Of a DNA stretch of 64,000 nucleotides, positions 10,943 to 57,621 are shown in pieces. A program made the position numbers and the translations under genes. The notes under the pieces are model-generated. The model worked only from the letters and a program-made list of their open reading frames with translations. It did not search any database and was not told the origin of the DNA. The first letter of the stretch is position 1. The number at the start of each line of letters is the position of its first letter. Source of the stretch: Polymyxa betae A26-41 (lineage: Eukaryota; Protista; Endomyxa: Phytomyxea); NCBI GenBank assembly GCA_003693705.1, contig RBZT01000435.1, forward strand, positions 186,001 to 250,000, in the 5' to 3' direction.

Positions 10943-11452
10943 GACGCCAAATCAGCAACTGAAACCAACGGGAGATTCCGATTTGATCGCCAGGAGCGTA
11001 CCCGCTGTCGAATTCCTGGCTTGAATTTCGGCGCCGACGACACCGCGACGTCAACTAATGACGCCAACTATGCAAAGAAAAATGAGGAATGTTACTATGA
11101 GCAAGTAACACTTTACAAGGAAGCATAAATCAGGTTGCGCTCCACGTCACCTTCAAATCCCGCTGTCTGTCTATCTGCAAGCTTCCTTCGGTTGCCATCA
11201 TTTACATTATGCCTAAAACCCCCAAATCTGTTGCTGATCTGTCATCTTCGACAACGATTTCGTTATGCCAGCTTTTATGAAAACATGATGCCAAAAATAC
11301 ATGGAAGAGAGAGTTGCAACGATGGTGCCAGAAACTATTTCTTGCTTGTATATAGACGATATCAGAATGAGTGTAATCATGGAAATTTGAAGTTTTTCAG
11401 ATAAGAATAGCTTGGTTTTCTGTAGCTATTTCTTCAGTGGGTTACCTTCAGA

Positions 11453-12440
11453 ATGAGAACCGCGGTGGCGGCGTTGTCGTCGCTAGAAGAGTCGTTGTTC
11501 GCTTCTCGCTCAGCCTTGAATCATGTTAAAGACATTGCCCAGACTCTGGCTTTGGCCAACGCTCAAATAACGCCAGCCATGATTCGGCCGCCCCGATATC
11601 GTCTAGTGCCGGTTTCAAAAGTGGCCCGGGCCAAGAAGCTCACCGAGATCAAGCATCACGAATACGTTGAGCTGGTCCTTAACGAGGCCTATAATCAGCT
11701 CGATGCATTAGGAGAGTTTATTCAAGATCATAGAGAAAGACTCGACTATCACCTGTTCTTGGTCCAGGAACGCTTTCAATCAGATCAACCCGAAATTGAA
11801 CAAAAGTCGCGCTTTTGCCGATCCTGTTGCTTGTTGTCATTAACTATATTGCAGATATCACAATGAGATCGTAATGCTAAAGCAGACAATCGACGCCAAG
11901 AAAGTGGAGTTGAATCGATTATACGATCTGAAAGAAGCCGATGGCAAATCGGATGTTCGAGAGCGTCTTCACGCAGCCGAGAAAACGCTTCAAGAGCTTC
12001 GTTGCGAATCTGCAGAGCGCCGCTCTCTAACGGAGCGTATTCAACAGCAAAAACAGTGCTTGCAACAGGTTCGAGATGGGAACGCCAAACAAATCGAGGC
12101 ATGTCGATCGCAACTGAATGAACTCCACAAACGAATCGAGGACAGCTCGATCGGAATCGATCAGCAATCGATTTTGAAGCAAATAACAGTCATATTACGG
12201 GTTTGTGGTGCTTCCAGCCATTCATTACGTGCTATTAAACGAATTCTCACAAACGGTTTCAGCTGCAGACTTTCTGATTTCGATGCCGAGTTCCCGAGTA
12301 CCTCAGAATCCGCTCAGCAAGCTTTGAAAGCAACTCTGGCCGAATTGGAAAGTTTTGGTCTTGTTCATATCTCTGACGATGGAGTTGTTGCTGTTGGACA
12401 ACTTAGATCGGAGTCAAAAAAACTTCTAATTAAAGTATAA
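11453..12440 (+). CDS. Spc19-like (DASH/Dam1 complex) N-terminus + coiled coil + possible winged helix
   Basis: Exons 11453-11805 and 11855-12440 joined by a 49-nt GT-AG intron. The N-terminus LEESL..ALNHVKDIAQTLALAN..MIRPPRYRLVPVSKVARAK resembles yeast Spc19 as I recall it. Confidence 0.55.
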
Positions 12441-12497
12441 TAAAATTTGTGCGAGTTTTTCTCGAAATATCTTTCAGATCGGTTGAGATCTTTTAAA

Positions 12498-14348
12498 ATG
12501 GGAACTTCTCCCAGGTCTGCACCGTTTCTGCTTCGTGACAAAATAAGGCTGTTCGACAGGTTCGCTTTGGACAATTCACCATTGAACACTTCACGTTCGG
12601 TTCGCGATGATCAGACCAAATCTGAAGTCGCCATGTTTCCTGGCTGGAAACACGTGCCATTGCCTCCACCACAACCTATCGTTCTACCAAGAAAATCCAA
12701 TAATGAGCCGATATCAGCATTCGGAATAAGCACAGATTCGGCCTTAACGCCTCGCATCGTCTTGAAGGACACCGATTTTGAACCGGTCGAAGATACGATC
12801 AAGAGGATAATGGATGAAGCGATCGAAGCAAATACGCATGCGTTAACGGCACGCTTTCAGGCAGTTCTCAAACAGCAATGTAGCTCAATCGAACAGAAAC
12901 ACCAAGCTCTTGCGGAAAAGTATAGACAGCGAGTTACGAAAGCGATGCTGACAGCCAAGACCAAGCTTGATCGCTGCAGAGCTGAGTTGACAGAGACCAA
13001 AACAGCTGTTCAAGCCGCAGTTAAAGTCTCTGCCGAGCGAGATGATTTGCGATCTAAGAATGAAGACCTGAGGGCGGAAATGGCTACTTTGACAGCTCAA
13101 ATGAAACAGGAGAAAGCAGCTATGAATACGAAAGTGAAATTTCTTCGAGCTCTTATAGCTGACAATGCACGCTCTAAAACAGACTCCAAAGCTCACCCGT
13201 CGCTTAAAAAGAACCCATCAGTACCAGAGGAACAAACTCCATGGACAGATCATACGAAATCTAACTCAGAGATCGCGAAACAATCTCAACAAATCCAATC
13301 ATTAAACCAACAGCTGCAAATACTTGAGCAGCAAAAGCGACAACAAAAACTCGAACAGATACAAAAGCAGCAACAACAACAGGAAACGAATCAAAGCGAA
13401 CAAATCCAGAGGCGACCAGATCAGGATGAAGCGATAGAGACTGATCCACAGGAAGAAGAGCAGAATGGAGTGACGAAGCTCATTGAAGAATTGGAAACGA
13501 AACAGGAAGAAATAACAAAGCTGACTAAGGAAAAGAAGCTATCAGAGCAAAGGAATAAAGTTCTGAAAGATGAGAACGCCAAGCTTAAAGAAGAGCTAAA
13601 CCAAGAGAAATCATTACTGAAATCGGAACGACAGCAACTGTCTCAGAAAATTGAACAAGCACAAGCCGAAATTGGAGGCCTGACAATGCAATTGTACACT
13701 GCTCGACTAAAAGCAGAAGAATTAACAGAGAAGGACATAGAGATCGAGACCGAACTGAAACTTATGCAGGAAAACTTTGCCACTATCGCTAGCGAGAAAG
13801 CAGAAATGGAGACATCTATGATGACCCGGATTGGATCCCTCAAAAATGAGCTGAAACGAACCAGAAGAGCGATTTGTATAAGATCGCTCCTATTCCAGGC
13901 TCATCTAAAAACTATTCATTCATCAGTGATGGTGTGTGACAAGATTGATGAGTATCTTGACGGGCAGCTGACCTGTAAACAATGCCTCGGCACGCTCAGG
14001 AAACCACAAGTTCTATATCCTTGTGGACATTCATTTTGCGAGCCGTGTATCGAGACTTTAAAAGATCCAGAAACAAAACGTCTAGTCTGCTGCGATTGCG
14101 ATTGCGCTTGTGAAGCAATCACAGTCACCAATTCAGCGTTGGATGCGATCATATCGCAATACAACTGGTGGAAAGTTTCTTTAGACGATCTGAGGAAGAA
14201 ATACGTTGGCGCTCAGGGCTCGCTAGCAGGGGAGAATAACAGTGATCCCGATTTCGCTGTTGCATTATCAGCATCGGCTAATAACACCAATCCAGTTCTA
14301 AGACCGTCATTAGCGACATTGAATCGACAGTATAGTAAGCAAAAATAA
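12498..14348 (+). CDS. Long coiled-coil protein with C-terminal C3HC4 RING finger (putative E3 ligase)
   Basis: Single ORF; E/K/Q-rich heptads; CKQC..PCGHSFCEPC..CCDC. Confidence 0.85.
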   Translation: MGTSPRSAPFLLRDKIRLFDRFALDNSPLNTSRSVRDDQTKSEVAMFPGWKHVPLPPPQPIVLPRKSNNEPISAFGISTDSALTPRIVLKDTDFEPVEDTIKRIMDEAIEANTHALTARFQAVLKQQCSSIEQKHQALAEKYRQRVTKAMLTAKTKLDRCRAELTETKTAVQAAVKVSAERDDLRSKNEDLRAEMATLTAQMKQEKAAMNTKVKFLRALIADNARSKTDSKAHPSLKKNPSVPEEQTPWTDHTKSNSEIAKQSQQIQSLNQQLQILEQQKRQQKLEQIQKQQQQQETNQSEQIQRRPDQDEAIETDPQEEEQNGVTKLIEELETKQEEITKLTKEKKLSEQRNKVLKDENAKLKEELNQEKSLLKSERQQLSQKIEQAQAEIGGLTMQLYTARLKAEELTEKDIEIETELKLMQENFATIASEKAEMETSMMTRIGSLKNELKRTRRAICIRSLLFQAHLKTIHSSVMVCDKIDEYLDGQLTCKQCLGTLRKPQVLYPCGHSFCEPCIETLKDPETKRLVCCDCDCACEAITVTNSALDAIISQYNWWKVSLDDLRKKYVGAQGSLAGENNSDPDFAVALSASANNTNPVLRPSLATLNRQYSKQK

Positions 14349-14512
14349 ATACGGCAGATAACGTCAACTATCAATATACCTCGTTGAGTTCGGTCGGAAT
14401 CACAACAACGGTAGGCTAGCATGACTTCTTTTGACGGTGGCACGCGCTCAGCCCAGTCATCTGTTGAGGGGCAGGTTTCCAAGCCACACATCATTTGCCA
14501 TTGAACGTAACG

Positions 14513-16434
14513 ATGAAGCAATTCGTCCGAAAGGTCAAGGACAACGTTCTTTTGTTCAGTGAGGGCGAACGCTTGGTTCGTGATGCTACATCCAATGAAC
14601 CATGGGGAGCATCAAGCACGTTGATGCACCAGATTGCTGATCTTACGTGCCAACGAGAGCATTATGAATCCGTCACGAATATGTTGTGGAAGCGTCTTAC
14701 TGATGTCACTTACCCACGACATGTTCTCAAGGTTTGGCATCGCGTGATTCGAGCATTTGTATTGAATGTTTGCGCAGGCTTGCCTATTGGTCGAGTTCCT
14801 ACTAAGAAACGGCAGTGAACGATTCGTTCATGATATGAAACAGAGGAGGCGCCGTTTTGAAGCCTTGAGCAAGTTCACAGACTATGCGGAGAATCCAGAA
14901 ATTGGAGCTGATGTTCGCTCTAAAACACTGCAACTTTTAACATTGCTTGATGATGATGCGAAAAGAAATGAGGAGCGTGTCACAGCCGCCCGAACAAAGG
15001 CGAAAATTCACGGCATGGGCAATACCTTTAACAGCCCGCATTTGCAATCGAGTGGCAGCCAACGCCGTGATGACTTGTCATCAAATAGCCGAGACAATGG
15101 GTTCCAAGAATCCCCAGCGTCGAATCGTGACAACCACAACCGGCAAAACAGTGACGACTCTTTCGACGAGAAGCTCAAAGCTGGTAAAACTGAGTCAAAA
15201 CCCAAAAGCAAAGAGAAAAAGAAAGCTGAGAAACAGCACGATTCCTTCGGGTTTGATGATGATCCTTTGGATGATGAGGATGTACCGAAACCCAGAGAGA
15301 ATGCGAAATCAATCAAGAAGGAAACCGATGAAACGGAACAATCTTCTCCTCTCTCCGAGAAGAAGAACAAAAAGTCAAAGGATAGTGAATCTAAGCCTAA
15401 AAAGGACAAGAAGAAGAAAAAGAAGGCAAACAAAGACGTTGACTCAGACGAGGTTGGCATCCCAGACCCTCCAAGCGGCCAAGAGGACGAGGGAGATTTT
15501 GTTGGTGCCGATCGGGCTAGTGGACTCGCCAACCAAATGAGCCAAATGTCGTTTGAAGCATCGTTCGATCTGATGGATAATTCTTCGAATCAAAAAGCTC
15601 AAAAGCAACCGAAACAGCCAAAACAGCAGCAACAAACACAGCAGCAGCAGCAGCCAGCGTCATTTGACTTCTTCTCATCGTTGGATAACCAGACAATTAG
15701 TCCAACTAGTGCTACGCAGAGCGAATGGTTCGATTCCAAGCCAACTGCAAAAACGCCAGAAATCAGCAACGCAAACGGTAATGCTTTCTTTGACGACTTC
15801 CAGAGCGCATCAACTATTCCTGCCAAAGCTAGCCCAAACCAATCCCCAGCACAAACCGCGAAGAAACCGGAAGATCTCTGGTCATCGCTCACTAACATCG
15901 ACAGTCTAACTGCTCCAAAATCTCAACAACCGGTGTTATCCAAAACGGTCTCAGCGCCGATGGCTCCTCAGCCAATGGGCCAGCAGCAGCCATACGACGC
16001 GTTCAGTATGCTTGGAGCGAATTCCAACCAAGGCCTCTACAATAGCAACAACCAAGCAGCTTTCAACAGCAACAATCAGCCTGCCTTTAACAGCAACAAT
16101 CAGCCTGCCTTCAACAGCAACAATGGTTTCTATAATGGCTATCCACAGGCACCCCAACAACAGGGACCGTATGGAGGGCCATATGGCCAGGTAGGCCGCG
16201 CCAACTTGACAAAAAGGGAAGCTGAATATGAGACAGACACCACCACAACAACCAATGTACCCCATGATGCCAAACAATCCTCACCAGCAACAATTCGTCA
16301 ATCCAATGCAGCAATCGAATTTCGGCGGCGCCCAGATTCCGATGCAGCAGCAAAAGCCGCAAGCGAACTTGAATATCCCAGATGCATTTGCTGTGTTCGG
16401 TGCCATGAACAAACGAACCACGGTGGGACCTTGA
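14513..16434 (+). CDS. Epsin-related ENTH-domain protein (2 introns)
   Basis: VRDATSNEPWGAS, MLWKRL, HVLKACLLVEFLLRNGSERF, GADVR; low-complexity tail with FDFF/FFDDF/DLW motifs. Confidence 0.9.
16041..16124 (+). repeat. Coding tandem repeat, 24 bp x ~3.5 (NSNNQ[A/P]AF)
   Basis: aacagcaacaatcagcctgcctt(t/c) units are directly visible inside the epsin tail. Confidence 0.9.
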
Positions 16435-32243: not shown

Positions 32244-33806
32244 TTAACAGGCAACGAATGCATCCACGGATTGACAATCATCAGAAACCGACGATGTGTC
32301 GCTAAGCGCGTCTTCATCTTGATCATATTCATCGCTCGATTCTTTACTTTGGTCGGCCTCCAGACGAAGTCGCGTCGTTTCAGCGGCATCGACCCAGTCA
32401 ATACAAAAGATGTATGCCAGGCTGAGCACAGCCGCGAATACCAACGCGAAGGCATTTCCCCACCAGATCCCACTCAAACCGATTTGTAGCGATAGATAGT
32501 AGGCCAAAGGAAGGCCCAATAGATATCCAATCACGATAAAGACCGAGCCGATACGTTGCTGGCCGCAGCCGCGAAGAACGCCGCCAGACGTCATCAGCAA
32601 TGCATAGCCGAGCTCGGAGACACCAACGGGGATGATGCAGGAGACCGCCATATCAACGACGTCTTTATCGTGCGAGTAAAGCATCGCCGTCGGACGAATC
32701 GCCAACGTTGAGATGATGATGAGAAAAATAGCAATGGCCAACGACGCCCCGATCGAGATCATGGCAGAAGCTTTCGCAGCCCCATGCTTGGCATATCCCA
32801 AATGGTTCCCAATACGAATGGAGGTCGCCGAAGCGATCCCGCCATACCCGACGTATTTAACCACGTTAATCGTGAAGAGAATCGTATGAGCAGCCACAGC
32901 TGTCTCAGGATCTGGAAGCCAACCCGTCATTACATAGGTGAACTCGAACGCCCACCATTCCCCAACGATCATGACGAAGCTGTGGAAGGAAAGGCAGAAG
33001 AATCGCCATAACGCGACCGGCTCACAAACGAGCGACGTTTTCCACGGTCTCCAGAGCAAATCGACGAGATCCGCATAGAAGAAATAAATCATCGTTAGAA
33101 TCGGGGCCACAACCGAGGCGATCGTTCGGGACCATGCTGCGAAATAGAACTCGAAATTGAACACGTTCAAGAGCAAGTAGCATAAGAACAGGTTGAAGGC
33201 GTTCGAGACCAACCCGACCACGACGGTCGGCATCACAACGGATCGCGATTGTAAGCTCTTCGACATGACCGTATTGATGAAGATGAAGGGCAGTCCTGGC
33301 AGCAGACAATGCGAGAATTTGGCGGCGCCGATCGACATATCGACTGGCTGCTGCAGGATGTAGACTAAGAACGGCTGCGTGAAGATGTTGGCGATCGTGA
33401 TGGGAATACAGGCCAGAACGAGAATCACGAGACAACGCTGCGTGTAGAGAGCAGCCAGGCGACGATCGCCGCCGCTCTTGGATCCATTCGCATTCGCATA
33501 CAGAGTATCGAGGCCATACGTCATCCCCAGACCAATCGATAAGCCCGAGATGTTCGAATACATAACGGCCAGCGACGACGCATCCAGATTGATGCTGGAC
33601 GTGGACGACGTGTTCCCGACCATGATGACGCAGATCGTGGACGTGATCGTGATCAGGACGTTCTGCAGCGCCAAGGGCATGGCGATCCGGAATAGGGCCC
33701 GACCTTCATCCTCCTCCTGCTCGTTGGCCACCCCGAGCAGAGGGTATTCGAGGTCCTGGTCGGCGGGATCCGGAACAGGAATATGCAGGATCTGGGCCAT
33801 ATTCAC
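32244..33806 (-). CDS. MATE family efflux transporter (intronless)
   Basis: 520 aa; GLGMTYGLDTL, QRC, EWWAFE, SIRIGNHLG, GGVLRGCGQQRIG, GLSGIWWG. Confidence 0.95.
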   Translation of the reverse strand: MNMAQILHIPVPDPADQDLEYPLLGVANEQEEDEGRALFRIAMPLALQNVLITITSTICVIMVGNTSSTSSINLDASSLAVMYSNISGLSIGLGMTYGLDTLYANANGSKSGGDRRLAALYTQRCLVILVLACIPITIANIFTQPFLVYILQQPVDMSIGAAKFSHCLLPGLPFIFINTVMSKSLQSRSVVMPTVVVGLVSNAFNLFLCYLLLNVFNFEFYFAAWSRTIASVVAPILTMIYFFYADLVDLLWRPWKTSLVCEPVALWRFFCLSFHSFVMIVGEWWAFEFTYVMTGWLPDPETAVAAHTILFTINVVKYVGYGGIASATSIRIGNHLGYAKHGAAKASAMISIGASLAIAIFLIIISTLAIRPTAMLYSHDKDVVDMAVSCIIPVGVSELGYALLMTSGGVLRGCGQQRIGSVFIVIGYLLGLPLAYYLSLQIGLSGIWWGNAFALVFAAVLSLAYIFCIDWVDAAETTRLRLEADQSKESSDEYDQDEDALSDTSSVSDDCQSVDAFVAC

Positions 33807-34272
33807 GAATGGCGTTATGAAACCATCTGGGCACGGCCATTGTTTCGACCCAGGTCTGGGTGTTGGCCCACTCTGTGTCTCTCAGAATCCGCCTGGCGTG
33901 CCGCCATGTGCCGTACTTGTTAAGGTCGATCGAACCGAATCGGCCACGCACAAATTGTGCGTCATACAAACTGCACCCCAATTGGGCCCTTGGTGCGTCA
34001 TACAGATGCCATCTCATACCGATCAGGCTTCGGGTACAGAATGATGTGGTCGCATTTTGTTTGCAAATAGTAGATGTCGAAACCTTTCAGAAATGATATC
34101 TAAGGATAATCTATAAAAAACCAAGGTATTCTCGTGGGCTTAGTTCTCAGAAGACGTACATGGATAAACTTCACAGCCATTATTAGCTTAGCTTTTTCTG
34201 TATCCAAATCATAATGGATGGATTTTAATTTGAATGTAGTTCTCTTTGCAGATAGGATAAAAACGTGTTGGT

Positions 34273-34722
34273 TTATCCGATAAATGTTAAGACGAAGATG
34301 TGCAAGAGAATGTTGCAGAAAACCCATTCGATAAATGCCCGTTCGTTAGAAACGCCCTTGTCTTTGCGATGGTCTCCAAATAGATGAGGTGATGCAGTTT
34401 GGAATCTTAATGAAGCTGTGAACACGAAACTGGCAACGCAGGATATGAATCCAGATAGGAACGCGTTGAACGGGAAAGACCCAGCTAATAGGCAGTAGAG
34501 ACCTTGAAGCAATCCAGTGGCAACAGTAAATAATAAGTAAGCGTCAATAAGCCGAAGGCGACGAGGGGTGTTCTTCATATAGTCTTTCAGCACTTCATGA
34601 TAGATCGAGACGAAAGTTTGAGACGATACAAGTGACTTTGGCTTGCCTTGTTCAGTCGGTGAGCCGACAGCCTGGTTAGATCGACCAGAATTCTTCAGAG
34701 CCGCCGCTGACGATTTACCCAT
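34273..34722 (-). CDS. DAD1: Oligosaccharyltransferase subunit DAD1/OST2
   Basis: TPRRLRLIDAYL, GSFPFNAFLSGFISCVASFV..SLRFQ, ERAF, LHIFVLTFIG. Confidence 0.96.
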   Translation of the reverse strand: MGKSSAAALKNSGRSNQAVGSPTEQGKPKSLVSSQTFVSIYHEVLKDYMKNTPRRLRLIDAYLLFTVATGLLQGLYCLLAGSFPFNAFLSGFISCVASFVFTASLRFQTASPHLFGDHRKDKGVSNERAFIEWVFCNILLHIFVLTFIG

Positions 34723-35484
34723 GACAAAGAGAGATAACAAATCTGAAGAATGGGTTGGAATTAACTACGAGTCTGAGAGGTCCCGCTACACTCTCTCTGT
34801 TTATACTTTATAGACGACATTTCTATGCACAAACAACACGAATGTTACATGACTGAAAAATCTACGATAGTGGGCAGAGTCGAGGAAGAAGTTTGTGGAG
34901 AACAATAGCATGTATTAGGAAAGTTTATAATGTTCGAAGATAGAGCCGCGCCTAAACAAACAACCAATCAGCACTGGAATGATAATGTTGAAGGAAGAAA
35001 AGAGGATAAAGATTTGTCAGTAAGGGACATTTCAATTCATATGAAGAGCTCAAGGGAGACAACTAGAAGTCGACCTCAAGCTCTTCTAGAATAGTGGTGG
35101 TGCATATCCGATATCATCACACAAATCCATAAAACAGCCTCAAACAGTATTACCGACCTGAAGTCAGAGACCAACACGACAGTACCGCCAGATACTAGCT
35201 GACGACTGATGAGAAATGGAATGAAGCCGATCCTCGACGAGTCGACCGAGGCAGACTCCAGATCCGCCATTCAGCCCGAAATCCGCAATTTTAATATTAG
35301 CGCACGGGCCATAGTTTGAACATCACAAAAAATCACCACCATGATAGAACGATCTCAACCTATAAAAATATCAGTAAATATGAATTCTTTGCTAATTCTA
35401 ACAACGCTCCATATAACATGAATGAAATCGCGGAAGGATTTTAAAAATGTGAAAATATATATCGAATGTTAAAGCAATGAAGAA

Positions 35485-36186
35485 ATGACATACATTGAGA
35501 AAGCAATGAATAACTATAGAAAGGGCAAGAAGCTCAGTGTCAAGAGGATTACTGAGGAAATTCTGAAACCAATGATTGATATCAAGAGCAAGGCGGTCTA
35601 TCTAAGCAAACTGATGAGAATTTAAGCAAATACTAGACGATCCAGAACTTGAAAGACTGAAACTCCCAGCAGAAATGGCACAGCAAGTTTGGGATGAACC
35701 GCAGAGGAGACTTAGTGAAAAGGAGAATATCAGTTTCAAACAAGAGAAGATAAATGAACTCATGGAGCTGAATATCTTCAACGACCTCGTCATATTCAGG
35801 ACGCCGAGAGAACGAACTGCTAAACCTACAACCACATGAGACGAACGACGAGAATGCCTTCTTATTCGACCGACAGCAAAAGCAGAGAGAGACGATTAAA
35901 TACGTCGTATCATTATACAAGATCCAATATCCAGAAATCAATAATCTGGTTGAACAAGATGCAACAGAAACCCCCAAAATCCACAAGGACACGATGCTTA
36001 AGCGCTTAAGATCCCGCCTGAAGATGGTTTTAGGAAATGAGGAGATCGTGATCCATAATCTACGAATGCTTTTTAATGTACGAGGAGAGTGACAAGGTCA
36101 TGCCCTTCCATACCGTCGCCATGCGCCTCCTAGGTCATGAACGCCCTGACACGACCATTCATTAGAATCGTCTCCTCATCACTTGA
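35485..36186 (+). pseudogene. Telomere resolvase (protelomerase)-like tyrosine recombinase, frameshifted
   Basis: Stitched over 3 frameshifts (~35620, ~35795, ~36076): MTYIEKAM..SKAVYLSKLMR/EFKQILDDPELERLKLPAEMAQQVWDEPQRRLSEKENISF../SGRRENELL..FLFDRQQKQR..IHNLRMLF/MYEES..MRLLGHERPDTTIH*NRLLIT. TAG at 36163-36165 sits at the catalytic Tyr position. Confidence 0.8.
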
Positions 36187-36190
36187 CCTA

Positions 36191-36592
36191 TTATAATACA
36201 CGATTGATATTATTGCCTTGTCTATCAACCCAGCGCAAATCGCTCACCCTATTGTCACGCCGATCTCTATTGATGTGATCGACCTCCTTTAATCGATGTA
36301 GATTGGGGATGTAGTGCAAACGATGAATATAATGATTTCTATTCCTCCCATTCTTATAGAGCGTGATTCGCTTATAACCGTCCTTAAGTATGAAAGGTCT
36401 AATGGGCGACCACCATATTTTGAGCAGATTGTGCACGAATTGAGTAGTATCATAACAAAATACGACATATCCGGAAGATTCACAGATTAGTCGCCCAGAT
36501 ATGTCTTGATAATCCTTAAAATCACCCAGCAGTAGACCATATCGATAGAAACAAAGCAAACAGCAGTGTCGATAATCTACTATGGGTAACAA
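36191..36592 (-). CDS. HNH endonuclease (NUMOD4/HNH_3 type), probably decayed
   Basis: DGYKRITLYKNG..HYIHRL-HYIPN..EVDHINRDRRDNRVSDLRWVDRQGNNINR. The usual VAxx after HRL is missing and there is no ATG start. Confidence 0.85.
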   Translation of the reverse strand: MLPIVDYRHCCLLCFYRYGLLLGDFKDYQDISGRLICESSGYVVFCYDTTQFVHNLLKIWWSPIRPFILKDGYKRITLYKNGRNRNHYIHRLHYIPNLHRLKEVDHINRDRRDNRVSDLRWVDRQGNNINRVL

Positions 36593-36615
36593 TTCAGAAA
36601 AAACAGCTAACCATC

Positions 36616-36801
36616 ATGAACAGGAACGACAATGGTCATAGGGTTCAGGTTTCGTTTCTATCTCGAAATAGGATAGATCGAACGTTTGCTAAACTTGATG
36701 ATGCCATTGAGTTCCGAGACGCGATCCAGAGAACGATTGATATAACGAAGAGATATGCCAAGTATTGGTGGATCTTTCTAGAAAGGATATGGAACACATA
36801 G
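36616..36801 (+). CDS. Small AP2-like DNA-binding domain ORF
   Basis: HRVQVSF..RIDRTFAKLDDAIEFRDAI resembles the beta-strand/helix pattern of viral and phage AP2 domains. Confidence 0.45.
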   Translation: MNRNDNGHRVQVSFLSRNRIDRTFAKLDDAIEFRDAIQRTIDITKRYAKYWWIFLERIWNT

Positions 36802-37031
36802 CACGAACTCAATATGGAATGGCATCATGATTGCTTTTGCATTCGCGAGCCAAAAGGAAAATTGCATCAAGAAGAGTCAGTTTCCGAGCATTAGCTGTAC
36901 AGGGCAGGTCGGTTTCTACAAGACATGCTCATATACAGGCAACTGGGATGAGTGTTTATGTGACCGTCTTCTGTTTTAAGAGAGACAACTTCTCTCATCT
37001 CAGTGATTTATAGCCTGTACTTATTGCCATC

Positions 37032-37889
37032 ATGTGTGCTGATTATAGTCTCGCTTCATACTGGGAGAAGCGCTATGAGAAGTATTTGAGGTTATTTATC
37101 TTATTGGGTGCAATCGCTAAAGAAATGCAGAGAGCCGGAGACTTTCGAATGGTACCAGAACTATGCCACCTTGAAACCGTTCATTTTTCAGTATATCACC
37201 AAAACCCAGCCTGCTGCCGTCCTTCATGTCGGCTGTGGGAACTCTCGTACAGCAGATGAAGTAACGGAAGTTCCATTGGTTAACGAATGCTGTTCGTAGG
37301 GTTTGGAGAGGGATTATATCGAGATGGTGTTACACACGTGGTTAATATCGACTCATGCAGAGCTATCATTGATATCATGAACAATAAGCATAAGCTGTTA
37401 AGCGAAATGAAATGTAAAGTCCAGACAGAAGGATTATTGCACGTGTTAACGTTCTGGTAGATCTAACCATGGATGTTCGACATCTCAAATTTGACGAAAT
37501 GTCATTCAATTTGGTTCTCGACAAAGGTGTTGTTGCCCCGTGTGTTCTATAAGAACAAAACCTGACTTGATATTAGGCACGTTAGACTGCTTTGTCTGTG
37601 GAGAGAACGCCAAGTTCGAAGTAAACTCTATGTTGACAGAAGCTTATAGAGTACTCAAGCATGGTGAGTGCTTAACGTCTGTTTTGTCATTATCTTATAT
37701 TATGAAGATGGCGTTTATATTTGTATCTCGTATGGAACGCCGGCCACCCGTGAGCCATATTTTAACCTAATCTCGGGATGGACATTAGAACAGACAATGA
37801 CAGTTGAGAAGCCGAAGCAAGCGTACGAAGTGGACGTCACCAACCAATTCCATTATATTTACGTTTTGAGGAAAGCTCAACCACAATAA
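37032..37889 (+). CDS. EEF1AKMT4/METTL13-N-like SAM-dependent methyltransferase (multi-exon)
   Basis: DYSLASYWEKRY, FEWYQNY, VLHVGCGNS, MDVRHL, DKGTLD, EAYRVLK.G.YICISYG.P..R, HYIYVLRK. Confidence 0.9.
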
Positions 37890-37916
37890 GCAGATGGGCT
37901 GCTAAATACAATCACA

Positions 37917-38657
37917 TCATATCCTTCTTCCTGTATCGCCGAGACAGTCATGTTTCCGACAGCGATGTTTTGGGGATTGCAACTCCTTATTTGAAATTAA
38001 CGTCGAATTGGCTCCAGTAATGACAGGCTTGTAAAAACTCAGTATCGGCCTTTCAATCAAAAGTGATCGCATCTTCTGGTCGAAACTGAAATTTGCACTG
38101 ACAAGTAAGACGCCTCTAACTTCACAACTGTATATCGCTTCAGACATGTATTACGCTAATCAACACAACACCTTATTACTGTTTAATTGATACTGGAGCG
38201 CCTTTCTGGCATGTGATTTTGAAGCATCGTGCTGGCATATAGCCCATCTTTATCCGAATGTGTTTGTTATGAGGCAGGCGAATATTGTTTTGGATCTGTA
38301 TCCATTGCTTTGACTTGTTATCCAGCGAGATTGAAACTGACAGCATCGAAGCCGAATGATTGGAAATATTTAAGTATCCTAATCATTGATTAGTGTTGAG
38401 CAGTTATGAAAGAAAACAAGTCACCTAGAAGGCATGTTTGAAACAGCTCACAAACCACATAATGTGGTTGAGACGAATTTGTTGACCAGCGAACTGATTT
38501 GATGTTCGATGTAATAGACAAATTGGAGGCAGGTGCATCTGGTCGGGCAGCTGAAGTATCGACAACCCGAAATGGGATAGTCTGTACTAAGCTTTTACTA
38601 TCAGCCATTGATTGGATTCGTTAGGTAAAGTTGTTACACTGGAATTATCAATGGCAT
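37917..38657 (-). CDS. Small protein with galactose-binding-like beta-sandwich (multi-exon)
   Basis: IPFRVVDTS..PASNL..RWST..HYVVCELFQTCLLG|YLNISN..GYMPARCFKITCQKGAPVSI..EVRG. Confidence 0.55.
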
Positions 38658-45517: not shown

Positions 45518-45630
45518 CGCGGAGTGTCTGAGAAAAGGGCGCAGAGTATTTCAAAAAGTGCGCGGAGTGTCTCAGAAAGTCCGCGGAGTTTGAGAAAGTG
45601 CGCAGAGTGTCTGAGAAAAGTGCGAGGAGT
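45518..45630. repeat. Imperfect ~21-bp tandem repeat x5 in the WDR55/Bin3 divergent promoter
   Basis: Units approximate cgc(g/a)gagtgtct(g/c)agaaa(a)gtg. Confidence 0.9.
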
Positions 45631-46441: not shown

Positions 46442-46628
46442 TATTCGATAACATCTTATATGCAGTGGTATCAGTAGTGGACGACTATCGTATACATTTG
46501 GGCGAAGGTTTTCTACATAATTTAATAATCAATGATTAGATAATAACATCTATTACAAAATCCCCAGTGACATTGTTGATGTTCTGTGCACAAAAAACTG
46601 ATTATAAAAGGTTCCCAAACACCAAAGG

Positions 46629-46816
46629 ATTGTCCGCCGTACTGCCCCGTCGCTGTCCCCGGATTGTTGATGGGGATCTCCTCATTGGTCGTGCTCGTGA
46701 TACTCCTTGGGGGTAGCGGTCTGATAAGCTTATTGGTCTCCATTTATGAAAAGTGTTATAAAAAGATAACAAGTACCGGCGCCCAGATTCACGTGGAAAT
46801 GCAGCCGCAGCAGTGA
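46629..46816 (+). pseudogene. Truncated copy of small TM protein (signal-peptide exon deleted)
   Basis: DCPPYCPVAVP-TM-YEKCYKKITSTGAQIHVEMQPQQ* with no upstream signal-peptide exon. Confidence 0.55.
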
Positions 46817-47136
46817 CTTGATATTCCCTACCAGTTGCATTACCAGTCATACTATCCCCTCTTGATACACTAAACCATAATACCGACTTCGAACTTGAAT
46901 GAAAGCTTTCGGTCGCATGTTCGCTCCTTGGGTTATTCCTGGGTTCTAGAAATCGTTTGATGGTCTGTGCACAAAAAACTCGATTAAAAAAACATCAAAA
47001 AAGGTTCCCAAACAAAACAAAATATTTGAGCGGCAGCCAAACGGCGGCGCAGTTTGCTCTGACCTCAAAGATGTTCCACGAATATCTGCAGCAGTGCGGT
47101 CTGGTCCAGTATAACTGGATCATGGTTGTCGCTCAG

Positions 47137-47472
47137 ATGAAGGATTCCGTCTCCGTTCTGATGCCGATCTTGATCCTCCTCACACTACTGATGCAATCCT
47201 CAGCCATCCCGGCCCTGTCAGCACCGTCGTACAGGTCCGAGATACACCTGGACTAACTCTGATGGTGCAGGCTGTAGGACTGCGCGCCGTACTGCCCCGA
47301 CGTCGCTGCCCCCAGAGTGCTGATGGCGGAGGTCTCCCCATTAATCGTGCTCGCGGTAGTGATCGTGGGCGCCATCCTGGTTGGATTATTTAGCTCCTTG
47401 TATAAAAAGTGTTATAAAAAGGTAACAAGTACGGCCTCCAAGATCCACGTGGAAATGCAGTCGCAGCAGTGA
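47137..47472 (+). CDS. Small signal-peptide + CxxxC + single-TM protein (possibly disrupted)
   Basis: MKDSVSVLMPILILLTLLMQSSAIPALS exon, then DCAPYCPDVAAP-TM-YKKCYKKVTSTASKIHVEMQSQQ*. A TAG at 47275-47277 is in frame under the canonical splice. Confidence 0.55.
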
Positions 47473-47789
47473 TTTTTTATTCTCTACCGGTTGCATTACC
47501 AGTCATACTATCCCCTCCTGATGCAATAAACCATAATACCGGCTTAGAACTTAAGCGTTCGCTCGCATCTTCGCTCCTTGGGTTAATCCTGGGTTTTTGA
47601 AATCGTGTGATGGTACGCCTGGATTTGGGTCCTTCGGGCTCCACCTCATTAATGAATCGGAAAAGTCCGCCGTGCGTTCTTCTTTCCAACGACCGCCTGA
47701 TCTGCTGCTGTCAGTTTCTCGGAGCAAATGGTCTGCTCTGGCTCGTTCAATTTGACGATCCCTGCTTTGAGACCGAGCGTCAGCCGTTA

Positions 47790-54395: not shown

Positions 54396-55186
54396 TCAAA
54401 AATATCGTGTTCGCTTTCCGCTTTGTCGTTGTTGAAATTTTGTCACTCGCAACGATTTCTCTTCGAGATGTTCGTTTAGGCTGGGCTGCCCATCGAAGTC
54501 GTTGCGATCGACTTCAAGGCCGGGCGCCGAGTTCAAACTGTCCAGAAAACTTTGCAAAATCAGAGTAGCGGCGTTGGCATCCAATGCGGGATCGCCCTCT
54601 CGAATCGCTTTCCCTAGCATAAATCGATTCGAATATGCAGTAGCTGACCTAACATGATAACTGAACGCTGAGTCTGACGATGACATAAAACCAACGTAAA
54701 TCGCTCATCCCAGAATACAGGAGCTGGTTGATGCCACTTTCCAGGATTCCATGATAGCAGGCCGGCTGTAAACTGTTTAACGGCCCTACAGCTGGAACCT
54801 TCTGATCCATTAGGTTCATAAGGATATCTATTTCGAAGGTTATGCAACGGATCGGTTCAAGCAAAATTAGCATACCCGACGATGAGAAAATCAGGGCGCC
54901 GCGTCTGACACATCTGGCTGATTGTAGCATAGACGCCGGCATGTTCAAGCACATTGATGCGATTACCAGAGACCCAATGACGAGTTCGGGCATCACCCGG
55001 GCGGGTGTATGTAGCAGATCCCAGCGACGACGCCAACAGGAGATCGTTGTCGGCCCAGGAGAAGCCGATTCTGCGCATGCCGACATCCACGCCGAGCAGA
55101 CGAATCCAGCGCTTTCCAGCCAGGCGCTGCCTCACAGCTCGAACTAGCTGGACAGATCGGTGGCCGACTACTATTGTGTCCTTCAT
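54396..55186 (-). CDS. YqgF/RuvX-like nuclease (pre-16S rRNA nuclease family), with introns
   Basis: RLLGVDVGMRRIGFS.AD, FLIVG|YP, VFWDERFT, DANAATLILQSFLD. Confidence 0.88.
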
Positions 55187-57621
55187 TGTGGCGCTGCGCG
55201 GCGGATCTAAAAATCTGTTCCACGAAGCAAGAGGATTCCCTGATTGTTCAGATTTACGGACTATGACGTTTAAGCTCTTTTTCTTTCCTGAATCGCTTTG
55301 GATCTGTGCATTGCGACCGTCTGATAGTGAGGGGATATAGTCGGGCAACAGGTTGACTTAGCAAGTTTGGCGTATAAGCGGCAAGTGTCGCTGTGAGATT
55401 GCGCTCCAAACTATGAACAGATAGAGTGGGCTGTGTTCATACACAGTTCAAAGCAATCTTCAAAATTGCTTTCTAAAGAAGCGTGAAGGAGTATCGCCGA
55501 ACTTTCAACAAAAGCGCCATTATTTTCGCAAGCACTCTACACAATGGTCCCATTTCTACAATCTTGGACACTAGTTATCAAAATGATAGTCATTGCCTGT
55601 CATCTACGACCTGCAAGTTCGGCTTTGGGCCTTGTCGCTCAAAGCTGGCAGAGGGTTATGTGGAAATGGCGTCTCTAGCTTCATCACAAACTGTTTGATT
55701 AGGATCTGATCCGAGACAGTCTCCTTCAGTCACCTGTTATCGCATCAGTTGTATCGTAGAGATCGTTGCCACTCCCAATGAGTGGGTCATGAATATTGGC
55801 TCGTCTGTGAGGCGTCTCTGTTGCATGGAGAGCGACGTGAGCTAGAGGGTCCCAGGTCGAAGCCAGGGTGACTGCAAGAGGCTCCATCCTTCAAATACTT
55901 CATCATTATGCGATCTGATTGATTGCTATTACATCAACCTGGATCTGCCCAGCCTGCTTTGTAGCCATGCTTTCATGAATCCTCACTGTCGCTGAGTTAC
56001 CAGACGATATATTACTGGAGGAATCAACGATGTGATACAATACATTTTTGAGAATTGCTGATGGTCGATGGCTCAGACGCGATGGAGGTCGTACTAACAT
56101 TAGCGACATCAGGCTCAGTATGAGCGGCAAGAACTCGTAATCGCTGCACACTAGTTTCGAATAGAAATCTTATCGGCTGTGATCAGGAATTATTCTAAGA
56201 TTGAGTTCCCGGAACAAGAGAAAAAAATGCCTTGCAGTATTTGTATCGAGCTGCCCAACCCAAATTCAAAGAGCAGTCTCGCTGTGCACCAATTTGCCAT
56301 TTTGGATGCACTTGGTGAAATCGCTTTGAGAGCCCCCCGTTCCGGTTTATCATTTTAACAATTGTTGCAACAAGACGATCAATGGTCGCCATGACTCCGA
56401 GACTTCTTCCAACAAGGTCAGCATCAAATATCTGGAAAATCAGCATCATTCTCTGACGTGCCCATTTATTGATCTGCATTGAACGATACACGACGCTCTC
56501 CTTGCAAAAAAATTGCAACAAAAGCTAAAGTGTTCCTAGCGCAAAATGAAGTGAATTAGCAATGACAGTAGAGATGATCAAATAATTTAAGTTCGTTTGG
56601 GCCGTCGGAGACAAGGGCCATTCCAAGTGCTGGCACGGCGGCTCCCGCTGGTTAATAACTCCCCATCGTTCGTTGAATGATTGGAATGCTCAGCAATAGT
56701 ATTTTTAGTATTTCAGTCTGGAATTCGTATTAAAGCCACAATTGTTCTGTAGGCTTGTTTTCAACTTCTGTCGCTCACAATATCGGGATTTTCACATCAA
56801 AATCTAACTGCAGTGAGCTCAATTTGGATATCACGATCCAGCAGCGAATTCGACTTGAGTGAATGTTTAGGGTGGGCACTCCTATTAGCGTTAAACCCAT
56901 CACCAGGGAGAGTCGTTCCGAATCAGCATAAGTGGATTTCAAAGATTATCAAGGGGGTCCTTTGACAGGCATGAGTTTGAGATTGATGACATTGTCGGCC
57001 TGTTTAGAAGGATAGAAGGTAACACGATGAAAAATTTCAAAGGAGAGAAAACAAAATCATTACAGGCTTGCTAAATAGACGGGCTGCTGATATCTAAAAT
57101 TGAGAATTCCTTGGTGACCGCCCATTGTCTCATAACGATTGAGATTGGTGAACTGATTGGGATTTTGCTTGAAATCTTCACGATAAAGACATGGACTGGA
57201 AGGGGCGAACGAAAGCCCTGAAGTGGTTGATGGTTGCTTTAACGTTGAAACTGCTACGATGGAAGACTTTGAAGCACTATGAGTCATTCCAGGCGGCAAT
57301 GGTACGACAGCGAGCAACTACCGGTTGTCGAATCCAATCCAATCCACGACAACGAGCAATCCATATGAGCACTTTTATGAGTTGTATAATGAAGGCGTGA
57401 TATAAATGGCAGGGCTTCGCCGCTGGGTTGGGGCGATGGGCGCCCCGCTTCCCCAAAATTTGACTGGATGCGGCGGCAGACGCTGTGATTCTGGATTTTC
57501 TGGTTGATGAATAAGCGACGCTTGGGAGCTCTTGGGGGCCTGGGGCACCCCAGTGCGGCCCCCGTTCATTTAATCGATCGGGTTTCTCAATTATGGGTGA
57601 ATACCGGTGTACCAGAATCTG

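Follow-up and report, generated by a model that had tools for sequence, protein, structure and literature searches.

The DNA analysed here, a stretch of 64,000 nucleotides from Polymyxa betae (hereafter the window), raises the question of how virus-like genes came to lie between two host genes and whether they still function. The first-pass annotation had read the interval as a cassette of three intronless genes, for a telomere resolvase, an HNH endonuclease and an AP2-like protein, left by an undescribed DNA virus or linear element.

Decayed genes between two host genes

The neighbours of the cassette are those described before (Table 1). DAD1 on the left was identified by Pfam and the gene on the right by its spliced product, which carries a motif that we take to be that of a methyltransferase; the single exon of this gene that was scanned gave no Pfam match. 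A MATE transporter gene (32244-33800), GC-rich and in a single frame, lies 1.5 kb from the relic. All four sequencing runs compared (X1-X4) carry the cassette. In run X1 positions 33800-38000 fall within one 75-kb contig without differences, and run X2, from another study, covers both junctions, again without differences, which refutes the chimerism considered in the first-pass annotation. X1 or X2 may themselves be the source of the window, and X3 and X4 belong to two further studies. Although the cassette is genuine host DNA, all of its genes are defunct.

The three presumed genes turned out to be decayed fragments, as the resolvase contains frame changes and stops and the second HNH gene is broken. 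By six-frame translation, no intact resolvase frame was found between 35000 and 36200. The relic changes frame near 35617, 35790 and 36075, misses about 8 codons at the break near 35790 compared with its kin, and has stops at 35419 and 35470 in its putative N-terminal part; homology to kin sets in weakly at 35581 and becomes clear at 35618. The catalytic residues Arg, Lys, Arg and Tyr hardly vary among kin. The relic retains Arg, Lys, HxLR and His, but with its three frame changes and a stop where kin have the catalytic Tyr it has no intact catalytic frame. None of the relic pieces themselves matched a resolvase family of Pfam or PHROG. An imperfect 18-bp inverted repeat upstream of the relic (35043-35086; fold z -3.3, picked after the fact) bears no resemblance to the palindromes of the kin.

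Resolvase-like coding on the plus strand ends at the stop 36184-36186 and HNH coding on the minus strand at the stop 36191-36193; the convergent stops are separated by four bases, as had been claimed. Both HNH remnants match HNH_3 (PF13392) with 27.2 bits against a Pfam cut-off of 24.8 (query stretches within 36191-36613 on the minus and within 36520-36798 on the plus strand), and PHROG matches span approximately 36403-36200 on the minus and 36430-36610 on the plus strand. Since both kinds of match occur on both strands, two HNH remnants lie back to back, and the AP2-like ORF (36616-36801), previously counted as a gene of its own, is the C-terminal tail of the second HNH gene on the plus strand. 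This tail aligns weakly to viral HNH tails. The labels AP2 and NUMOD4 were not confirmed: no AP2 match was obtained in the tail with Pfam at E up to 10, nor in any of five viral HNH-tail controls, and no NUMOD4 match in 36404-36613 of the minus strand at the same threshold, at which three of five viral controls matched weakly. A faint NUMOD4 motif can be seen by eye in front of the HNH. The open frame of remnant 1 extends to 36613 without a Met, its part above 36403 matching no family. Longer proteins matching the plus-strand HNH were not found, and 64 HNH loci were set aside as generic HNH matches, none of them having the resolvase or the core genes of its kin.

In X1 and X2, short and much deeper contigs of approximately 85% identity match 36316-36817. 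These deeper relatives place the HNH-tail part in a repeat family, which is cut off here at about 36817. The depth ratios of the contigs (117 to 14 in X1, 2316 to 200 in X2) are not copy numbers and suggest many copies. X4 also has contigs from other copies of the HNH tail. A second copy of the resolvase part was not detected at an identity of at least 85%, a threshold that older copies below 85% would escape.

In base composition the cassette does not stand apart from its region, its GC content (0.406) being like that of two nearby intergenic stretches (0.408 and 0.439), and DAD1 and the adjacent MATE gene are single open frames too. The first-pass annotation had seen neither a capsid nor an ATPase nor end repeats, and this holds for the whole 64-kb window: 95 protein queries found no trace of capsid, ATPase, VLTF3, helicase or protease, no other viral gene was found, and a tel-like palindrome, terminal inverted repeats, a convincing target-site duplication and a long repeat pair bracketing the cassette were all missing from it. 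An 8-base repeat (35216, 36814) was rejected as a target duplication, being at chance level. Elsewhere in the window, a sequence without a long frame occurs twice within 46593-47614, the diverged copies (79-89% over 232 and 62 bases) lying some 650 bases from each other; an 18-base repeat occurs in three copies between two divergent genes (45518-45630), and a minus-strand open frame (54857-55357) has a nuclease-like motif, presumably resembling that of YqgF/RuvX-type nucleases.

Table 1. Features of the cassette and its immediate neighbours, in coordinates of the window.
Feature	Position	Strand	Basis
Host gene DAD1, single frame	34273..34722	minus	Pfam DAD, E 5.5e-38; transcript contigs 34187-34774
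Spliced antisense transcript, 1,719 nt	34932..36947	minus	RNA contigs, X3 and X4
Intron 4, 134 nt, GT-AG	35360..35493	minus	X3 and X4
Telomere-resolvase-like pseudogene, four reading frames, start uncertain	35380..36186	plus	homology to kin
Alternative intron, 184 nt, GT-AG	35602..35785	minus	one contig, depth 3.4, X3 only
First catalytic Arg (SGRR motif) and Lys	35796..35882	plus	alignment with nearly invariant kin columns
Intron 3, 49 nt, GT-AG	35826..35874	minus	X3 and X4
HxLR motif (36054-36065), His (36136-36138), stop at catalytic Tyr (36163-36165)	36054..36165	plus
Intron 2, 54 nt, GT-AG	36060..36113	minus	X3 and X4
Intron 1, 60 nt, GT-AG, removes end of HNH remnant 1	36188..36247	minus	X3 and X4
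HNH_3 endonuclease remnant 1	36191..36403	minus
HNH_3 endonuclease remnant 2 with C-terminal tail, broken by stop 36517-36519	36430..36801	plus
Right border of similarity to other copies	36814..36820		related contigs in X1, X2 and X4 diverge after 36814-36817
Host gene, five GT-AG introns of 44-53 nt	37032..37889	plus	head to head with antisense transcript

A spliced transcript on the opposite strand

Four CT-AC stretches of the cassette are missing from the contigs of X3 and X4 and are GT-AG introns of the minus strand. The five GT-AG introns of the neighbouring host gene are missing from these contigs as well, so that X3 and X4 are RNA-derived. The exons of the antisense transcript (36947-36248, 36187-36114, 36059-35875, 35825-35494 and 35359-34932) join to 1,719 nt, which is the length of the X4 contig. 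The cassette is therefore intronless in the viral sense only, while its opposite strand carries spliced introns.

The transcript starts about 85 bases from the start codon of the right neighbour, head to head with it, and stops short of the DAD1 transcript by about 150-180 bases; these are contig borders, which give neither the transcript level nor the true ends. Its longest Met-started frame has 64 aa, and no match was found in Rfam. The RNA is likely non-coding and is most simply explained as read-through from a two-way host promoter. A sigma-70 promoter scan remained below chance and was discarded, its model being unsuited to a eukaryote. A 45-base match at 36322-36366 in the RNA runs X3 and X4 has unrelated letters on both sides and perhaps derives from another HNH-like transcript.

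Kin of the resolvase relic

The 106-aa middle piece of the relic had 5 matches among 1.84 billion representatives. One of them (P0002) was a false match caused by repeats and does not figure in the tree; the other four, its nearest kin, are fragments of one family. The relic pieces align with these metagenome proteins in order and end to end at 41-49% identity. An unrooted tree (20 rows) unites the relic and the four nearest kin in one clade (support 96/97), separate from clade A, which includes P0019, and from clade B. Identity between the nearest kin and P0019 is 20-24%. On the clade-A profile the relic scored 12.4 bits against a maximum of 10.4 in 500 shuffles, and the nearest kin 34-62 bits. 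As the relic is barely above the shuffles, its link to clade A runs through the nearest kin, and by sequence comparison it is tied to the putative hairpin-ended viruses at the family level only. Genomic context for the nearest kin was not found in viral contigs, metagenome contigs, prokaryote genomes, phages or plasmids; queries with clades A and B gave nothing in viral contigs or phages, and two telomere-motif scans found nothing. A sister clade (P0007, P0014, P0015, P0020) keeps both Arg and the Tyr and misses both histidines. P0014 lies on a 24-kb contig, and a context search of this clade gave nothing.

PF16684 was matched weakly, below its cut-off, by three of the four nearest kin (E 3e-4 to 1e-3), and the full-length distant kin P0006 and P0008 exceed this cut-off. 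Full-length kin from the profile searches have about 260-296 aa. The 20-sequence profile places ResT, TelA and TelK above XerA, which an earlier 8-sequence profile had level with TelA. A confident model was obtained for P0019 (pLDDT 90.5), which superposed on TelA with Z 20.4 (rmsd 5.0, 251 aligned) versus 11.0 for XerA (rmsd 15.2, 214 aligned); Z was 18.4 for TelK, 14.3 for ResT and 9.8 for lambda integrase. Foldseek returned protelomerases at E 4e-9 versus recombinases at 7e-5. The predicted fold of this kin protein, the relic itself being unmodelled, is that of a protelomerase rather than of Cre/Xer.

The longest contigs encoding any of the 16 kin proteins measure 22.6-27.0 kb and account for five of them. 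Seven loci (L001-L007) were fetched with the clade-A alignment, and 31 proteins from four of them were scanned. L004 encodes VLTF3 (E 7e-17), a D5-like primase-helicase, a methylase and a protein with a weak match to A32-like ATPases (E 0.012); VLTF3 was also found in L007 (E 5e-14). In L001 there are genes for a GIY-YIG nuclease, for a protein with a PLA2 domain, for one that weakly matches adenain-type proteases and for two large paralogues (11216-12604 and 13837-15864; 27% over 353 aa). One of these two is capsid-like by a low-recognition Atlas match only (0.95, recognition 2033); its single-sequence fold failed (pLDDT 32), and a PDB sequence search gave no match. The frame of the shorter paralogue is open further upstream than its first Met. 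Among the 31 scanned proteins no HNH gene product was found, so that the HNH genes of the cassette may belong to a separate repeat. HUH endonuclease, VLTF2 and RuvC were not found among them either, with 17.4 of 25.6 kb and 14.4 of 22.6 kb covered. At L007:1-2055, which is GC-rich (49%), a resolvase-like C-terminal part adjoins VLTF3 and a SLATT-like gene.

Fold-back palindromes end three of the seven loci (L004:14284-14397, L005:3388-3485 and L006:2397-2590, with arms of 57/57, 49/49 and 90/97). They are centred 1.8-3.6 kb downstream of an intact resolvase gene, and, counted outward from the centre, their first 45 bases agree between loci at 32-34 positions. The arms of L006 differ at 7 places, which speaks against simple mirroring of one sequence; either two terminal repeats meeting at a telomere junction or two close variants may be joined here. 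The three loci are close relatives, with resolvases 74-87% identical, and therefore weigh about as much as a single observation. The L001 and L004 contigs were each covered at one end only. Repeated short genes in the same loci (L004:12290-13914, L005:2629-2736, L006:835-2176) begin with the same residues and have 50-120 bases of near-identical upstream DNA, within and between viruses.

With distant kin on small virus-like contigs with fold-back ends, the core guess of a telomere-resolvase-like family was borne out. The first-pass reading is supported in part, decayed fragments having been taken for genes, the second HNH mislabelled as an AP2 gene and the antisense transcript missed.

Relation to known systems and origin of the relic

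TelA, TelK and ResT (PF16684) resemble the kin in the fold and catalytic layout predicted for intact copies and in the palindromic junctions, which the kin have at contig ends. In the scheme for bacterial and phage resolvases, hairpin ends give rise to palindromic junctions that are then resolved (PMC13685816; PMC3558466, each in part). Unlike these enzymes, the kin have only about 260-270 aa, keep the HxLR histidine and lie on small eukaryotic-virus-like contigs, and the copy in the window is dead. Phaeoviruses and Emiliania huxleyi virus also have a telomere resolvase in a eukaryotic DNA virus able to sit in the host genome. It is annotated in EhV-86 and known from phaeoviruses, for which a telRL-like site was proposed (available part of PMC13236599). 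These are giant viruses, phaeoviruses having a separate recombinase for excision, whereas the kin contigs have at most 27 kb.

Polinton-like viruses with tyrosine recombinases (Gossevirus, VC35 and Zephyrvirus clusters) are alike in size (20-30 kb) and in their primase-SF3 helicase (10.64898/2026.06.19.733378, in part), as well as in an A32-like ATPase, cysteine protease, phospholipase and, in some, VLTF3 (10.64898/2026.06.19.733378; PMC4642659, in part). Their recombinases are well known and are read as integrases (PMC4642659; PMC10120064; PMC11296320, in the parts available), with dimer resolution suggested for an entomopoxvirus recombinase (PMC11296320, same part); the kin were placed in none of these clusters here. 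Halocafeteria virophages and Polinton-like viruses of subtype 4 are small endogenous viruses with palindromic ends, non-pPolB replication genes and, in a subset, HNH genes. They differ in their RVE integrases and in that hairpins are proposed as replication primers, and the available text does not mention a resolvase (10.64898/2026.07.28.741278). Mriyaviruses, small relatives of giant viruses, share VLTF3, ATPase and primase-helicase, but have 35-45 kb, direct terminal repeats, an HUH endonuclease and VLTF2 (10.1101/2024.02.29.582850, in part), none of which was seen in the covered parts of the kin contigs; the longest of these contigs have 22.6-27.0 kb and may be incomplete.

On balance, we consider it probable that 35380-36817 is the relic of a small DNA virus, comprising a broken resolvase-like gene and two broken HNH genes, which is now transcribed in antisense and spliced. 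This reading builds on the observed gene breaks, host-DNA continuity, splicing and deeper relatives of the HNH part. The parent would have been a Polinton-sized dsDNA virus (about 22-27 kb) that replicated from an internal origin with a primase-helicase. Each hairpin end would have become a palindromic junction, which a 260-aa resolvase would have cut and resealed into two hairpins, as in phage N15. Entry into the chromosome may have occurred via the same enzyme or host repair, and deletions would then have eliminated everything else of the virus and joined the two HNH genes back to back. Antisense transcription likely starts from a two-way promoter of the neighbouring host gene, and its product would be spliced by the host spliceosome at cryptic GT-AG sites of the T-rich antisense strand.

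It is rather improbable that the cassette is composite, that is, an old single-copy resolvase relic beside which a separate HNH repeat family landed later; for the resolvase, this would be compatible with the small-virus origin. At an identity of at least 85% other copies cover 36316-36817 and none the resolvase, and the HNH remnants lie back to back and share only 33% over 58 aa. However, the four-base spacing of the convergent stops resembles a packed viral genome, resolvase copies older than 85% identity would be missed, and subsets of endogenous virophages and Polinton-like viruses have HNH genes (10.64898/2026.07.28.741278, in part).

A capsid-free parent, either a tyrosine-recombinase transposon or a linear plasmid with an enzyme acting as an integrase, is unlikely. 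Kin with the same HxLR model as protelomerases and lie on virus-like contigs with fold-back ends, and the window has no end repeats or convincing target duplication. What speaks for such an element is that ordinary tyrosine recombinases have the HxLR histidine retained in relic and kin, a position at which TelA differs, that P0003 matches archaeal XerA (E 4e-5) as well as PF16684, that all four nearest kin are fragments and that the HNH part has multi-copy relatives; moreover, two point changes switch TelA to recombination (PMC13221069, in part).

Unlikely as well is an origin as a scrap of a giant virus, phaeovirus- or coccolithovirus-like, with telomere resolvase and HNH genes. Phaeoviruses encode such a resolvase, integrate and show a telRL-like site (PMC13236599, in part), among viral structures P0019 comes closest to a protein of Emiliania huxleyi virus 86 (E 7e-10), and the third Atlas cluster is mostly Nucleocytoviricota. 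Yet the top Atlas cluster is mostly Preplasmiviricota (few members having a taxon), no family member was found on a contig above 27 kb, and the 64-kb window contains no other viral gene.

As to the RNA, we regard it as quite unlikely that it is a selected host regulator and not leak-through, acting for example on DAD1 or the neighbour or supplying silencing RNA against the repeat family. Selection would agree with the four introns found alike in both studies, three of which have host size, and with an RNA that occupies the gap between two host genes, but Rfam gave no match, one run shows alternative splicing, and the contigs give neither RNA level nor ends. An assembly chimera or contamination can practically be dismissed. 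Although the window may itself derive from X1 or X2, these belong to different studies, both junctions lie inside one 75-kb contig, and the RNA contigs, from two studies more, show no differences from the window and are spliced by GT-AG rules; prokaryote genomes, phages and plasmids gave no match.

A full-text search, which took in few subscription journals and no preprint supplements, found no paper on a telomere resolvase or protelomerase in Polinton-sized viruses. The available main text of a 2026 classification preprint (10.64898/2026.06.19.733378) does not mention hairpins, telomeres or resolvases, nor does the available part of the mriyavirus preprint (10.1101/2024.02.29.582850) mention hairpins or telomeres. 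Since 51 such viral proteins, labelled by Pfam, already form a cluster in the Atlas, the sequences are public, though the link seems unreported.

As a decayed relic, the locus is ordinary in kind, and its spliced antisense RNA was unexpected. Its value is that it points to small eukaryotic viruses in which a minimal protelomerase is likely at work. These bear on how ends are copied in Polinton-like viruses that have no protein-primed polymerase and whose tyrosine recombinases are routinely labelled integrases. In the kin, an enzyme modelled in the shape of a protelomerase and the fold-back ends point to an N15-like strategy in eukaryotic viruses of 22-27 kb. More tentatively, undescribed Polinton-sized viruses with linear genomes might form covalently closed hairpin ends by a 260-aa protelomerase that also inserts them into host chromosomes, in which case this locus would be a fossil in their first host, and the host genome would contain more copies, some of them perhaps fuller. 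One small protein and one 114-bp palindrome make a direct test system. Because the kin enzyme is far shorter than TelA and TelK and keeps the recombinase histidine, it bears on the interconversion of resolvases and recombinases. The window itself shows that the resolvase family reached a eukaryotic chromosome, and that a dead, probably viral gene gained four spliceosomal introns on its opposite strand.
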